Sequence record: PV714129.1
Length of the DNA: 64,000 nt
Reading direction: 5' to 3' (one strand)
DNA from: Escherichia phage Mizar
Every line of letters starts with the position of its first letter. Position 1 is the first letter of the stretch. Below the pieces are notes generated by a model. It saw only the letters and a program-made list of their open reading frames with translations. It made no database searches and was not told the DNA's origin. This document shows positions 34,093 through 39,528 of the stretch, piece by piece. The translations under genes were made by a program, and so were the position numbers.

Positions 34093-34333
34093 CTCGGTCC
34101 CATGATTTGGCCATTAATTCGGACATAAATTCTTCAATGCGCGTTTCTTTAGATGGACTTTCACTATTAGAGACCGCAAGTTTGTAATCTGCAATAGGAC
34201 AGAACATATCAAGGTCCGTATTAAGGTCGTCTTTGATTTTTTCTTCTGACACATCTTTATCATATGTGTACAGATAACTATCACATGATTCTGATTTAAT
34301 GTAAATTGCTATACTCATCTCAAATTCCTGCAT
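34082..34333 (-). CDS. Hypothetical acidic protein
   Basis: 83-aa ORF. Confidence 0.45.
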   Translation of the reverse strand: MQEFEMSIAIYIKSESCDSYLYTYDKDVSEEKIKDDLNTDLDMFCPIADYKLAVSNSESPSKETRIEEFMSELMAKSWDRDDE

Positions 34334-34743
34334 TCGGTAATAAAACGTTCAACTTCATTATTCTTGGCTTTTATCTTGTCTTTATGTTCTTGTAAACTAC
34401 TTTTAATAAGATTAATAATGATGGCGGCGGTACCGCCGCCAATGATGCCACCAACAACACTTACGATACTAGATGCTAATAAGATAGCAATAATATCAAC
34501 AAAACCGAAAGAACTCACCTTAGTACTGAAAAACCATACCGACGGTACAAATATAATCCATCCTGTTATCCATTGGCACTTATTGAAAAACTTTTCAAGC
34601 TCAGCTTGAGTTGTTCGTATTACTTCATCGATAGGTTGATATCCATTAATGTATCTGTTCACGATAATACCTGCTGGCTGGTCGATTTTAAATTCTTGGC
34701 AAATACGTTTCACTAAGTAGGATGGACATCCTGTCCAATCCAC
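34315..34743 (-). CDS. Membrane protein with C-terminal ERFITECR motif
   Basis: Two hydrophobic helices; C-terminus ...NNEVERFITECRNLR. Confidence 0.5.
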   Translation of the reverse strand: MDWTGCPSYLVKRICQEFKIDQPAGIIVNRYINGYQPIDEVIRTTQAELEKFFNKCQWITGWIIFVPSVWFFSTKVSSFGFVDIIAILLASSIVSVVGGIIGGGTAAIIINLIKSSLQEHKDKIKAKNNEVERFITECRNLR

Positions 34744-34806
34744 TGAATAGTACGAAATACCTTCGTTGCCATCGTCTATATTAAGACCAATATGTTTTGT
34801 TAATCA

Positions 34807-35493
34807 TTACCAGCCTTCCATAGGGAATTCCAGATAAACTTGAGCATTGACACGAATTTCATTGGTAATCTTTTTAACTCGGTCTGTATTACGAGATACA
34901 CGTCCGAACCAACGCCATCCATTACTAATTGCACGAGAACCAGTGTGCCATGTTTGCCAATCAAACTGAAGAAGAGTACGGTCTGGAGCTTCCCATTTCT
35001 CTAGTTCACCTTTTTCAATTTTTTCGAGGACTTCTTTGTGCCATTGGCGATAGATAAGTTCGCCATCAGGAATCTGACTGAACTCTGCAGTTCCTGTTGC
35101 AAAATGAGTAGGACACACATCAGCGTTAACAAGACCAAGAATATGTTCAGACAAATAGCGAGGATTGTCATAGTCAGGTTGTCCTGCAGTAATAAAATGT
35201 TGACCAACCGGAATATCCGGGCGTGGTACGTCATCATGGTGATAACCAGGAATAGCAGGATACCAACCAGGCATCAGCATATGAACACGTGAATCGAATA
35301 CTACTTCATTAGTGTTCCAGTCATCAGGCAGATTCATGATGAAAGAACGAGTGATAGGACCGCCGTTATCAAAAGCAAACTTCAGGTTGCAGTTGAAGAA
35401 CATAGGCTCATTTTTAATTTTATCATTACTGATACGGCCAGCGAAACCACCTACTGCACGAGCTTGACTATTAAACACTTTAGAACTATTCAT
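34807..35493 (-). CDS. Hypothetical protein
   Basis: 228-aa ORF with GAGGAAAA SD. Confidence 0.55.
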   Translation of the reverse strand: MNSSKVFNSQARAVGGFAGRISNDKIKNEPMFFNCNLKFAFDNGGPITRSFIMNLPDDWNTNEVVFDSRVHMLMPGWYPAIPGYHHDDVPRPDIPVGQHFITAGQPDYDNPRYLSEHILGLVNADVCPTHFATGTAEFSQIPDGELIYRQWHKEVLEKIEKGELEKWEAPDRTLLQFDWQTWHTGSRAISNGWRWFGRVSRNTDRVKKITNEIRVNAQVYLEFPMEGW

Positions 35494-35494
35494 A

Positions 35495-35800
35495 TTATTT
35501 TCCTCGACATTCTTTAATGAAATTTTCTAGATTGGTAGATTCAATAGCTTTTTTACGAGCTTCTGCGTGTTCTTCTTCAGACAATTTACATTTATAATTG
35601 ACCCAGACGTTATGGTCGAAACTAGTCGTGGCATATAATAACAATGCTCCAACGAATAATAAAAATGGTGATAAGAATACAAAACCAGGAACACCATCCA
35701 TATCGTAAGCCTTTTGTAATACTGCAACAGAAAGAGCTACGTAAAAAAGTGATACAAATATTGTTAAAAGACCAATTCGGTTGGTTTCTGTTAATTTCAT
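35495..35800 (-). CDS. Membrane protein with C-terminal ENFIKECR motif
   Basis: Two hydrophobic helices; C-terminus ...NLENFIKECRGK. Confidence 0.5.
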   Translation of the reverse strand: MKLTETNRIGLLTIFVSLFYVALSVAVLQKAYDMDGVPGFVFLSPFLLFVGALLLYATTSFDHNVWVNYKCKLSEEEHAEARKKAIESTNLENFIKECRGK

Positions 35801-35820
35801 AATATTCTCCTCATGTTTTA

Positions 35821-35858
35821 ATAGGACTACTATAACATAGTCCTATCAGTTTGTACAC
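35821..35858 (-). promoter_or_regulatory. Early-promoter stem-loop cassette (PeSL-like)
   Basis: Minus strand GTGTAC, 18 nt, TATAGT; inverted repeat ATAGGACTA/TAGTCCTAT around the -10. Confidence 0.5.
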
Positions 35859-37432: not shown

Positions 37433-37630
37433 TTAGCAAGAATAACTAGACGATACCCAGCCTTGAACAGTGATACTATTGTTGGATAATGAGATCGCGT
37501 TCTGGAGATTCAGACCTGCGTTATCTTCAATCCACAATGTAACTTCTTCACGCTCTTCGGTTGCAATCTGGAACAGGTTTTCCAGGGCAGCTACTGCCGT
37601 ACGTACAGCACAATCTAATTCACGAGACAT
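37433..37630 (-). CDS. Small protein ending GWVSSSYSC (paralog A)
   Basis: 65 aa; C-terminal motif shared with the two downstream ORFs. Confidence 0.45.
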   Translation of the reverse strand: MSRELDCAVRTAVAALENLFQIATEEREEVTLWIEDNAGLNLQNAISLSNNSITVQGWVSSSYSC

Positions 37631-37639
37631 ATGATTTCC

Positions 37640-37912
37640 TTAACAAGTGTGAGAAGATGCAACCCAACCACCATCTTCAAGGCTCAGGTTGTAGTCATAT
37701 TGGTAAACGTCAGCCCATTCAGCCTGGCCGTTTTTTGTACAACGTTCAAGATCGGCTTTAAGATGTCCGGGTGAATGATAGGTTCCACCCATGCCATAAG
37801 CTGGATACAAGTTGAATGTTGTGTTTTGTTTATTAGCAATTTCTTTGGCAGCCTCAATAGCTGCATAGATTTTTGCTACAGCTTCAGCCAGTTCGGTTTG
37901 TTCTTTAGACAT
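37640..37912 (-). CDS. Small protein ending GGWVASSHTC (paralog B)
   Basis: 90 aa; starts MSK; GGTYHSPG segment similar to paralog C. Confidence 0.5.
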   Translation of the reverse strand: MSKEQTELAEAVAKIYAAIEAAKEIANKQNTTFNLYPAYGMGGTYHSPGHLKADLERCTKNGQAEWADVYQYDYNLSLEDGGWVASSHTC

Positions 37913-37921
37913 AATGATTCC

Positions 37922-38227
37922 TTAGCACAGCGCAGAAGAGGAAACCCAAGCACCTTCAGTAATAACGTAACCATTACCTTCACGCTTAACATCGCCACCA
38001 TTATTTTCAATTTCATTTTTCATCCACTGGGATACGATTTCACCCTTAGGATAATAAGTACGACCACTACCATAATCACCTACAGAAAATGATACGGCAT
38101 ATTGGTCTGCGATCTTTGTTGCTTCTTCTTCGATACGTTCAGCTTGATTCAGAAGTTTATAAATTGCATCTGAAGCGGATTTGGCATCATTAAACTCTGG
38201 TACTTTAATTTCGATAATCTTACTCAT
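37922..38227 (-). CDS. Small protein ending GAWVSSSALC (paralog C)
   Basis: 101 aa; starts MSK; GRTYYPKG segment. Confidence 0.5.
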   Translation of the reverse strand: MSKIIEIKVPEFNDAKSASDAIYKLLNQAERIEEEATKIADQYAVSFSVGDYGSGRTYYPKGEIVSQWMKNEIENNGGDVKREGNGYVITEGAWVSSSALC

Positions 38228-38583
38228 TTTCTACATTCCTTAATAAAGTTTTCGATTGTTTCATTTTCACGTCTAGCTAGGAGTTCATTATAACTAATCA
38301 TTTGAGAAGCGTAAACTTTTTTATTTTTCTTGTTATGGTTTATAAAATCGTAGTAAAAATAGACTACAGTACAAAATGATGCGATGGATGCAAAGGCTTG
38401 GGTATACCGTAAGTCCTGCCATTGATCTGTGAATCCACCGGTGTTCCCTATAAATCCTAACACAACGCCGTCAATAATAAATCCAACTAATCCAAAGGCA
38501 AATCCCATGCCAATACTCATAATAAAAATTAGAATGTTCTCACCAAGAGAAGGCCATACGGTTAAGAGTTGAGGCTTTTGCAT
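38224..38583 (-). CDS. Membrane protein with C-terminal ENFIKECR motif
   Basis: Hydrophobic helices; C-terminus ...ETIENFIKECRK. Confidence 0.5.
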   Translation of the reverse strand: MQKPQLLTVWPSLGENILIFIMSIGMGFAFGLVGFIIDGVVLGFIGNTGGFTDQWQDLRYTQAFASIASFCTVVYFYYDFINHNKKNKKVYASQMISYNELLARRENETIENFIKECRK

Positions 38584-38957
38584 CTTATTTCCTTAACGAA
38601 TTCCATAGCTTCTTCATATTCATACTTTTTAACAGCTTCATCATACTGAGCTTGGGCTTTTGCGCACTGAACTTTCCATTCTCTTAATCGGGCTCTGTGA
38701 TGACGGCCTTGGTGCCAATATCCTACCCAATTAATAGGCATTAATAAAAACGGTACAATAAGTGGTGCGACGAACATTAATGAAAATGCTGCATCAGACG
38801 ATATAACTTCACTAGAATCTAAAACAGCTCCTATAATCATAAAGATTAAAAATGCTAAAGCTAAAATAGGGCCAAATAGTACTTCATTTGGGATTAATTT
38901 ACGCTTGTATTCATACGCCCAGGGCTTACTTGGCATGTACAGGGTTGGCTTTGACAT
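38562..38957 (-). CDS. Membrane protein with C-terminal EFVKEIRC motif
   Basis: Start placed at MSKPTLYM; two hydrophobic helices. Confidence 0.45.
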   Translation of the reverse strand: MSKPTLYMPSKPWAYEYKRKLIPNEVLFGPILALAFLIFMIIGAVLDSSEVISSDAAFSLMFVAPLIVPFLLMPINWVGYWHQGRHHRARLREWKVQCAKAQAQYDEAVKKYEYEEAMEFVKEIRCKSLNS

Positions 38958-39528
38958 ATTCTCTACATTCCATAATAAATTGCTCAAGGATTAAATTGTT
39001 AGTGAAATTAGGACTAACAACCATAGTTTCATAAAGCGCATCAATAGCACTTAAAGCATCAACTCTTTTAAGCAAAGGCTTGCCTTCATACATAGTTTCA
39101 GAATCAACGATTAACGTAAAGTAGTATTTTTTATTATCGACTAGAACTTCTGTATCGATATAAAACATATTAGACCTCAGAAGCTTATCTCTAAAACCGT
39201 AATAATCTTCAGAGCGTTCGCTGATATATTCCCATTCAGTGTTTAAACAACAAACAGACCATGTAGGAGCAACGAAATCAGTGAATCTAATATCATGGTC
39301 TGCAACTAGTTTAGCAATAGCTCCGATATCATGAATCATAATACCTGGGGCTAATAAAGATTTTCTGCTATGGCTAGCCGTTTTCTCAGTAGTCTCATAA
39401 GAAGACGACCAGTACCATTTACGTCCAGTTGCAACATATCGTAATGAATCAACTAAAGACGTAGGTGGATTTACCTTATCTCGGAACTCTTCGAACATTG
39501 AGTCAATATCATTATTTTGGTTTCGCAT
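38926..39528 (-). CDS. Hypothetical 200-aa protein with C-terminal EQFIMECR motif
   Basis: Start at MRNQNNDID with AAAGGAG SD. Confidence 0.5.
   Translation of the reverse strand: MRNQNNDIDSMFEEFRDKVNPPTSLVDSLRYVATGRKWYWSSSYETTEKTASHSRKSLLAPGIMIHDIGAIAKLVADHDIRFTDFVAPTWSVCCLNTEWEYISERSEDYYGFRDKLLRSNMFYIDTEVLVDNKKYYFTLIVDSETMYEGKPLLKRVDALSAIDALYETMVVSPNFTNNLILEQFIMECREYVKANPVHAK

Follow-up and report, generated by a model that had tools for sequence, protein, structure and literature searches.

Organization of the locus

A short peptide motif recurs at or near the C-termini of five proteins encoded in a 64,000-nucleotide stretch of DNA from Escherichia phage Mizar (record PV714129.1), referred to here, at its full length, as the window. 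The window has a G+C content of 36-40% and carries the majority of its genes on the minus strand. The 6 kb around the motif-bearing genes are 95-97% identical to RB69-like phages (Mosigvirus, Straboviridae), and by this sequence comparison the window is that of an RB69-like (Mosigvirus) T4-type phage. The five open reading frames (ORFs) whose products bear the motif, hereafter the carriers, are named by RB69/T4 annotation as e.2, RB69 ORF133c, e.3, e.4, and e.5 (Table 1), and they are bounded by e.6 and by nudE/e (33111-34092). In T4, the genes e.5, e.4, e.3, and e.2 are contiguous; in RB69-like phages, ~4 kb of additional genes, ORF133c among them, separate e.3 from e.2.

A preliminary description of the window had listed these five ORFs with their tails, and re-reading of the ORF translations located all of them at the positions given there, on the minus strand. 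It had also called four of the carriers small membrane proteins, and transmembrane (TM) segments are indeed predicted in four. Its statement that all five proteins end in the shared tail applies to e.2, ORF133c, and e.3; the e.5 copy is not terminal, being followed by 11 further residues, and e.4 carries a variant that is considered below together with the other e.4-type proteins.

Definition, rarity, and spread of the motif

The distribution of the motif was surveyed from e.6 to e in 13 phages that represent 11 genera, and in loci from IMG/VR, 36 of them anchored on e.6 and 51 on nudE. Alignment on the Cys of 38 non-redundant tails from the 13 genomes gave the consensus Φ(-7)-[E/D/N]-x-[F/W](-4)-[I/V](-3)-x-x-C(0)-R(+1)-[K/R/G]. 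High relative entropy was confined to positions -7 (L/I/F/V/M), -6 (E/N/D), -4 (F in 35 tails, W in 3), -3 (I in 26, V in 10, L in 2), 0 (C in all 38), and +1 (R in 37, K in 1), with weaker preferences for K at -2 and for K/R/G at +2; no conservation was found upstream of the motif in these tails. Beyond the CR pair the tails are basic (K, R, GK, KIK, KLK), and across carriers between 0 and 30 residues follow it before the C-terminus. At distant e.6 loci, Y replaces F (YIDQCR, YIMQCR) or K replaces R (FIHSCKK, FIKECKS), the Pseudotevenvirus version being KFIHSCKK.

Within the six-frame translation of the window, the pattern E.FI.ECR has exactly four matches, each at a carrier end, and the tripeptide ECR occurs at only those four sites. 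The more permissive pattern [FW][IV]xxCR was found within the last 25 residues of five ORFs of at least 60 amino acids, four of them real genes, against a mean of 0.156 and a maximum of 2 in 500 residue shuffles. The same loose six-residue pattern is not rare when counted anywhere in the six frames (6 observed versus ~2 in shuffles); the signal of the motif is its position and reading frame, not its raw count.

The preliminary description had made retention in related phages a test of the motif, and orthologues from T4 and many further genera retain it, with conservation in at least 11 phage genera. The whole T4 genome (168,903 bp, assembled from pieces) contains three real matches to the pattern: EKFVKECR in e.5, KEFVIDCR in e.3, and NNFITECRKLK in a 53-codon frame that follows the annotated e.2. 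Every T4-type genome with e.6 encodes between one and five carriers, most of them three to five, and these always lie between e.6 and nudE/e; in Jiaodavirus, one is located between nudE and e.

The e.2 gene itself has been broken in two different ways. In T4 (positions 5473-5961 of the T4 locus, L003) it is frameshifted, so that the part encoding the second TM segment, the tail, and the motif is stranded in the separate 53-codon frame; close T4 relatives have an intact 162-amino-acid e.2 with the motif at its end. In the window, the upstream frame is interrupted relative to the RB69 e.2 (163 amino acids) by an extra T (TGG TCT T AA...) at ~34780-34807 on the minus strand, and only for this reason does the remaining ORF, of 142 amino acids, begin at a GTG.

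Table 1. Carriers, motif copies, and adjacent features of the window (SD, Shine-Dalgarno sequence)
Feature	Position	Strand	Description
e.2 homologue	34315..34743	-	Soluble N-terminal part, predicted TM segments, K/R-rich tail ending VERFITECRNLR; phrog_2203 at 5e-42; RB69 e.2
e.2 motif copy, ERFITECR	34327..34350	-	Next codons AGG AAT TTG AGA TGA contain the SD and ATG of the next gene
ORF133c homologue	35495..35800	-	101 amino acids, predicted 2-TM, tail ...LENFIKECRGK; phrog_9798
ORF133c motif copy, ENFIKECR	35504..35527	-	SD (GAGGA) of the next gene within the R-G codons
e.3 homologue	38224..38583	-	Predicted membrane protein of 119 amino acids, tail ...IENFIKECRK; phrog_2330; stop overlaps the next ATG (ATGA)
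e.3 motif copy, ENFIKECR	38230..38253	-	K-E codons (AAG GAA) serve as SD for the next gene
e.4 homologue	38562..38957	-	131 amino acids, predicted 2-TM, e.3 paralogue by sequence, tail ...AMEFVKEIRCKSLNS (ORF end MEFVKEIRCKSLNS); phrog_2604
e.4 variant motif, MEFVKEIR	38583..38606	-	Ile replaces Cys; e.3 ATG within the R-C codons (AGATGC)
e.5 homologue	38926..39528	-	200 amino acids, predicted soluble, ends ...LEQFIMECREYVKANPVHAK; phrog_2607; e.5 superfamily, always after e.6
e.5 motif copy, EQFIMECR	38962..38985	-	11 residues before the protein end; e.4 start 7 nucleotides downstream
e.6	39578..40171	-	Conserved upstream neighbor; candidate motif partner by inference
Terminator-like hairpin between e.6 and e.5	39552..39569	-	GGAGGACTCCGGTCCTCC followed by TTTT
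Near-consensus early-type promoter upstream of e.6	40241-40213	-	TTTACA-17-TATAAT; strong match

Selection on the peptide and overlap with the next gene

Synonymous differences between the ORF133c and e.3 copies (TTC/TTT, AAA/AAG, and CGA/AGA, to which AAT/AAC can be added) had been taken in the preliminary description as a sign of selection on the peptide rather than of a DNA repeat, and the wider comparison bears this out, since synonymous codons vary freely across 39 distinct copies. Phe is encoded by TTT in 23 and by TTC in 13, Cys by TGT in 20 and by TGC in 19, and Arg by AGA (16), CGT (9), AGG (6), CGA (4), and CGC (3), while the I/V position uses seven codons. Equal conservation of third-codon positions across genera was not seen. 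Anywhere from 5 to >40 nucleotides separate the Cys codon from the next ATG, and for some copies, e.g., those in Mineola (11886-12194) and SP18 (12383-12712), there is no overlapping downstream gene. Because synonymous codon usage at the conserved residues is close to background, and because the spacing to the next start is variable, selection acts on the amino acids and not on a DNA element.

A second layer of constraint is nevertheless superimposed on these codons. The codons of each of the five window copies overlap with the following gene's SD or start, as had been proposed for several of them. In ORFs that end in CRK and a stop on an ATGA overlap, the codons at -2 and -1 are AAG-GAA, AAA-GGA, or similar, spelling the SD of the following gene (AAGGA). 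Where genes overlap, the same codons double as the ribosome-binding site of the following gene, so that the peptide motif and the initiation signal are layered on one sequence. This accounts for the milder preference for K-E/K-G at -2/-1 and the over-use of AGA/AGG for Arg (22/38 versus a background of ~33%), but not the F, I/V, C, R core. The window copies form a nucleotide repeat family (22 nucleotides, 77-91% identity), and T4 has an exact 16-nucleotide repeat at its e.5/e.4 and e.4/e.3 junctions; such repeats within a genome fit old tandem duplication together with codon bias. An out-of-frame ATG created by GAA-TGY (the start-stop 'ATGTAG') was also considered and rejected, as it exists in some copies only and position -1 is often Y, H, D, or G.

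Scaffolds that carry the motif

The carriers had been described as otherwise dissimilar proteins, which overstates their diversity: the window holds about three scaffolds, not five. With the tails trimmed, BLAST grouped 42 carriers into 24 clusters. A motif-trimmed iterative hidden Markov model (HMM) built from e.4 recruited e.3 (6e-29 for the window protein, 1e-30 for that of T4) along with many other 2-TM proteins, on which basis e.3 and e.4 are paralogues by sequence; direct comparison of the two by hhalign, on small alignments, was weak (probability 37%). ORF133c was not joined to the others by the motif-trimmed iterative HMM, and its match to the e.2 family is weak (phrog_2203 at 9e-5).

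The e.5 superfamily is separate from these proteins and soluble, and it takes in almost every protein encoded next to e.6. In an alignment of 13 members with 14-21% identity, the only invariant columns besides M1 are N96, F184, C188, and R189, the last three belonging to the motif. Several soluble families of ~100 amino acids also carry it. At least three unrelated scaffolds bear the motif, as judged by these sequence comparisons, and in each of them it is the part conserved best. The scaffolds, all encoded between e.6 and nudE/e, comprise the soluble e.5 superfamily, some soluble proteins of ~100 amino acids, and a diversifying 2-TM inner-membrane superfamily that includes e.3, e.4, and their relatives and to which e.2 and ORF133c are probably related. 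The motif probably spread by tandem duplication of small genes and retention on new scaffolds.

Searches of large databases with e.5 returned just 4-10 relatives and hence a shallow alignment, and PDB sequence searches with e.5 and e.6 gave no significant match. No Pfam family in a local copy of that database reached threshold for the carriers, the sole sub-threshold match being that of ORF133c to PcfK; a precomputed label, PF26876, exists for e.5. In PHROGs, all carrier families are listed as function unknown.

Predicted helix, topology, and the e.4 variant

The motif is predicted to form the last turns of an amphipathic alpha-helix, with Φ, F, I/V, and C on one face and Arg next to it. Positions -7, -4, -3, and 0, together with +4 in e.5-type tails, share one helical face, and the hydrophobic moment of residues -10 to +1 peaks at 100-120 degrees, exceeding that of shuffles of the same segment in 87% of tails. 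An AlphaFold2 model of e.5 is poor overall, with residues 179-194 helical at low confidence. In the 2-TM carriers, K/R-rich segments directly follow the last TM helix; in the soluble carriers, no TM segment is predicted. From both observations the motif is inferred to face the cytoplasm.

The e.4 copy had been regarded as degenerate. It is instead a true variant, in which Ile occupies the Cys position, and the 'C' that follows the Arg, in T4 as in the window, derives from the overlapping e.3 ATG (AGATGC). Across genera, e.4-type tails take forms such as F[IV]KE[ISV]R, FLKEMRK, FIKNVRRK, FVMEMRK, and FIESARKK, that is, V/M/I/A/S at the Cys position with F, I/V, and R kept. Because these paralogues have hydrophobic substitutes at position 0, a buried helix position fits better there than cysteine chemistry.

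The upstream neighbor e.6

The most conserved gene of the cluster is e.6, present in >1,100 phage records and annotated everywhere as hypothetical or as a 'host specificity protein'. The gene immediately downstream of it carries the motif in all 13 genomes and in 34 of the 36 e.6-anchored IMG/VR loci, the two remaining loci having a split e.5; the Pseudotevenvirus form KFIHSCKK and the YIDQCR of distant e.6 loci also belong to genes in this position. Among nudE-anchored loci, both e.6 and a carrier were found in 38, e.6 with no carrier in none, neither in 11, and a carrier with no e.6 in 2.

An AlphaFold2 model of e.6 (mean predicted local distance difference test score, pLDDT, 75) contains helices at residues 2-18, 25-80, 86-145, 166-174, and 186-196, arranged as an amphipathic helix at the N-terminus, an extended helical hairpin, and short helices at the C-terminus, a layout that matches the PspA/Vipp1 architecture with its alpha1/alpha2-3 hairpin. 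When this model was compared to the PDB with Foldseek, Vipp1 took the top eight places and the archaeal CdvB2 came next; in BFVD, the true e.6 homologues, including those of Ackermannviridae, were followed by a Snf7-family protein and a phage PspA/IM30 protein. At the sequence level, an e.6 profile aligned in register with Vipp1 in the PDB (5-139 versus 5-141), with an E-value of only ~1-2; no Pfam family, PspA_IM30 included, matched e.6 at E<0.1, and hhalign of e.6 versus E. coli PspA was not significant (probability 0.6%). A PspA/Vipp1-like fold is therefore considered likely from the model, though not established.

In the Ackermannviridae (Kuttervirus and Taipeivirus; L063 5632-6210 and L064 5636-6193), an e.6-like gene is followed by a gene for a protein of ~190 amino acids with an N-terminal membrane anchor. 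This neighbor contains [VI]ESI[VI]xRAR about 20 residues from its end, keeping the spacing of the motif with I for F and A for C. It may be a Cys-less and Phe-less relative of the motif, and is mentioned as a lead only.

Function of the motif

The recurrent tail is interpreted here, with moderate confidence, as a peptide motif under purifying selection, most likely a helix for docking or assembly through which the different carriers would bind one partner surface in common. Of the functions put forward in the preliminary description, docking appears from the sequences to fit best; a terminal degradation tag is disfavored by the variable distance of the motif from the C-terminus (0 to 30 residues) and a membrane-sorting signal by the fact that soluble proteins are carriers too. 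The leading candidate for the partner would be e.6, encoded immediately upstream, a speculative proposal drawn from synteny alone, and a host protein is about as likely. In a fuller and tentative form of the docking interpretation, which is given a fairly low probability of being correct, e.6 would be a phage PspA/Vipp1/ESCRT-III-like membrane-remodelling or -protecting protein, soluble e.5 and the fast-diversifying 2-TM proteins would be its expandable set of adaptors, and the motif helix would be the handle of those adaptors. Together they would constitute a Psp-like system of viral origin, in charge of the host inner membrane while a T4-type infection proceeds.

Several observations weigh against this interpretation or parts of it. 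All 38 C-type tails have Cys, a strictness that is unusual where a residue need only be hydrophobic, and the e.5 model is of low confidence (pLDDT 56). As for the partner, two T4-type genomes (L065 and L086; IMG/VR 2706795553_000001 and 650627040_000001) have neither e.6 nor e.5 in the nudE-proximal 10 kb, and an e.6 pattern scan likewise detected nothing in them, yet both encode two to four intact motif-bearing membrane proteins. Because the carriers are kept intact in these loci, e.6 cannot, on the sequence at hand, be an obligatory partner there. Furthermore, since nearly all neighbors of e.6 are members of one e.5 superfamily, the association between e.6 and the carriers is confounded by shared ancestry.

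An alternative that stays close to the docking helix is that the helices bind each other in bundles, either homo- or hetero-oligomeric, by which soluble e.5 would be held at the membrane carriers. The heptad-like spacing of -7/-4/-3/0 (and +4 in e.5-type tails) is typical of coiled coils, and most genomes provide three to five carriers. However, a single carrier, the gene at the e.5 position, is all that is found in the Aeromonas phages AS-gz and L053 and in Pseudotevenvirus leB and CfP1. Hetero-assembly thus cannot be the ancestral role, although homo-oligomerization would be compatible with a single carrier, and self-assembly as a whole is judged unlikely.

The strictness of the Cys also raises the question of whether the Cys-Arg pair is a reactive site carried by a flexible tail, with a redox, persulfide-carrier, metal-binding, or covalent-modification role. 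In addition to the invariant Cys and an Arg in 37 of 38 C-type tails, some GenBank records name e.3/e.4 'sulfurtransferase', an automatic annotation whose basis is not stated. Against this, e.4-type paralogues that are themselves conserved across genera have V/M/I/A/S at that position while retaining F, I/V, and R, and the Ackermannviridae e.6 neighbors have Ala there. The Cys is moreover single, with no second ligand or catalytic context, PHROGs assigns the families no function, and Pfam gives no match, so that an active Cys is regarded as distinctly unlikely.

Recognition of the tail as a signal for degradation or sorting, by a host protease (ClpXP, FtsH, Lon, or Tsp) or by a targeting machine, would account for the location at or near the C-terminus and for the basic residues after CR. 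Such a function is very unlikely, given that terminal degrons need a fixed end whereas 0 to ~30 residues separate the motif from the free C-terminus, that the motif is polar and amphipathic and not ssrA-like, and that both membrane and soluble proteins bear it. Capsid targeting with cleavage by gp21 (L/I-x-E) was examined separately and rejected: Glu occupies -1 in just 12 of 38 tails, the others having Y, G, Q, D, M, etc.

The position of the motif over the next gene suggests yet another function, that of a cis-acting nascent-chain arrest peptide (cf. MifM, SecM, and VemP) that pauses the ribosome over the next start and thereby couples downstream translation to membrane insertion of the carrier. 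Four carriers are indeed small membrane proteins in which a peptide conserved at the amino-acid level lies ~20-45 residues past the last TM segment and over the next SD or start, so that they fit the layout of force-sensing arrest peptides, in which an N-terminal signal or TM segment is combined with a C-terminal arrest sequence that controls the downstream initiation region. This mechanism is nonetheless highly improbable: soluble carriers exist (the e.5 superfamily and the ~100-amino-acid proteins), some carriers have no overlapping downstream gene, the distances to the stop codon and the next start vary widely, and the amphipathic-helix periodicity is unlike known arrest motifs. A local read of the sequence, in which no dedicated structure search was made, revealed no hairpin over the next start.

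Finally, the proposal that the peptide is functionless, a by-product of a conserved DNA element located where genes join (the region in which translation of the following gene is initiated, or a recombination/duplication junction), can draw on the SD/start overlap of all five window copies, the 22- and 16-nucleotide repeats, the AGA/AGG excess, and the AAGGA spelled by K-E/K-G where a stop follows CRK, and is left with almost no credibility by the synonymous variation at F, I/V, C, and R across genera, the unfixed distance to the next ATG, the retention of the motif in Mineola and SP18 with no downstream overlap, and the invariance of F, C, and R in the e.5 superfamily.

Comparison to known systems

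A docking helix shared by several proteins of one phage has precedents in kind. The T4 proteins gp43, gp33, and gp55 have C-terminal clamp-binding tails of the (S/T)LDFL(F/Y) type, and the present motif resembles these in that unrelated proteins of one phage end in a short hydrophobic/aromatic peptide, which in gp43, gp33, and gp55 docks on a shared partner. The sequences of the tails differ, ΦxxF[IV]xxCR in the present case, and so do the proteins, replication and transcription factors on the one hand and early accessory, mostly membrane, carriers on the other.

Small membrane anchors of PspA-family proteins are known from E. coli, where PspB and PspC act with PspA, and from Bacillus, where LiaI acts with LiaH. 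The likeness here would be that small inner-membrane proteins with cytoplasmic tails are encoded beside a helical-hairpin protein, as modelled for e.6. The carriers, however, have no sequence similarity to PspB, PspC, or LiaI (e.2, e.3, and e.4 have no Pfam match), and e.6 fails the PspA sequence tests. Variable bodies that share a short C-terminal module plugging into one machine are also seen in the PRANC/F-box-like motif on poxvirus ankyrin-repeat proteins and in the SspB XB tail for ClpX. This analogy is one of architecture only, as the organisms and sequences are different and no protease or ligase link is implied for the motif.

A literature search retrieved no paper with FIKECR, FVKECR, FITECR, or FIMECR, none that mentions nudE together with e.3, e.4, or e.5, and none on a PspA-like T4 e.6. 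To the extent of these sources, the motif has not been described before; in kind, it adds an example to the known shared docking tails. T4 ranks with the most thoroughly studied viruses, but its genes e.2 to e.6 remain 'hypothetical proteins'; the motif, as the most conserved feature of these genes, groups at least five orphan genes functionally and offers a direct experimental handle on them. If a PspA-like e.6 is indeed the partner, the cluster would constitute a phage membrane-stress or -remodelling module equipped with adaptors of its own. With a host protein as partner, the motif would instead be the mark of related host-takeover proteins that converge on a single hub.

Other features of the cluster

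Repeated cassettes of ~68 nucleotides (74% identity) are located on the minus strand at 35797-35864, 37367-37434, and 36074-36135, just upstream of small genes. Each combines an early-type promoter (TTTACA/TGTACA...TATAGT) with a stem-loop (TAGGACTAC..GTAGTCCTA), and they look like the promoter/stem-loop (PeSL) elements that, in work by Arbiol and colleagues from 2010, reportedly drive modular shuffling in hyperplastic regions of T4-type genomes. The motif shares with PeSLs its kind of location, a plastic accessory region with repeated junction sequences. In contrast, PeSLs are non-coding and conserved at the nucleotide level, whereas the motif is part of coding sequence, and only its amino acids are conserved.

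Three tandem small paralogues of phrog_899 (37433-37630, 37640-37912, and 37922-38227 on the minus strand; 65, 90, and 101 amino acids) display a second shared tail, G-W-V-[S/A]-S-S-x-x-C, in which Cys is the final residue. The third of them is split in RB69 into two ORFs (138c/139c), and homologues recur beside motif carriers in other genera. The tail motif is absent from the 318-amino-acid protein encoded at 36139-37095 on the minus strand, which contains DUF7277 and DUF7275 (E-values of 6e-27 and 7e-79) and is kept in this accessory cluster across many genera.

A small protein encoded at 32833-33129 on the minus strand matches at its N-terminus the sequence that targets T4 internal proteins to the capsid, MKTYQEFIAE. 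The F-[IL]-x-E of this protein has a superficial likeness to the tail motif, but is N-terminal and lacks the C-R. Within the e.2 coding sequence, a perfect G+C-rich palindrome, TGGCGGCGGTACCGCCGCCA, with a central KpnI site is located at 34422-34441 on the minus strand; it encodes the GGGTAA stretch of a TM helix and was flagged by a terminator scan.

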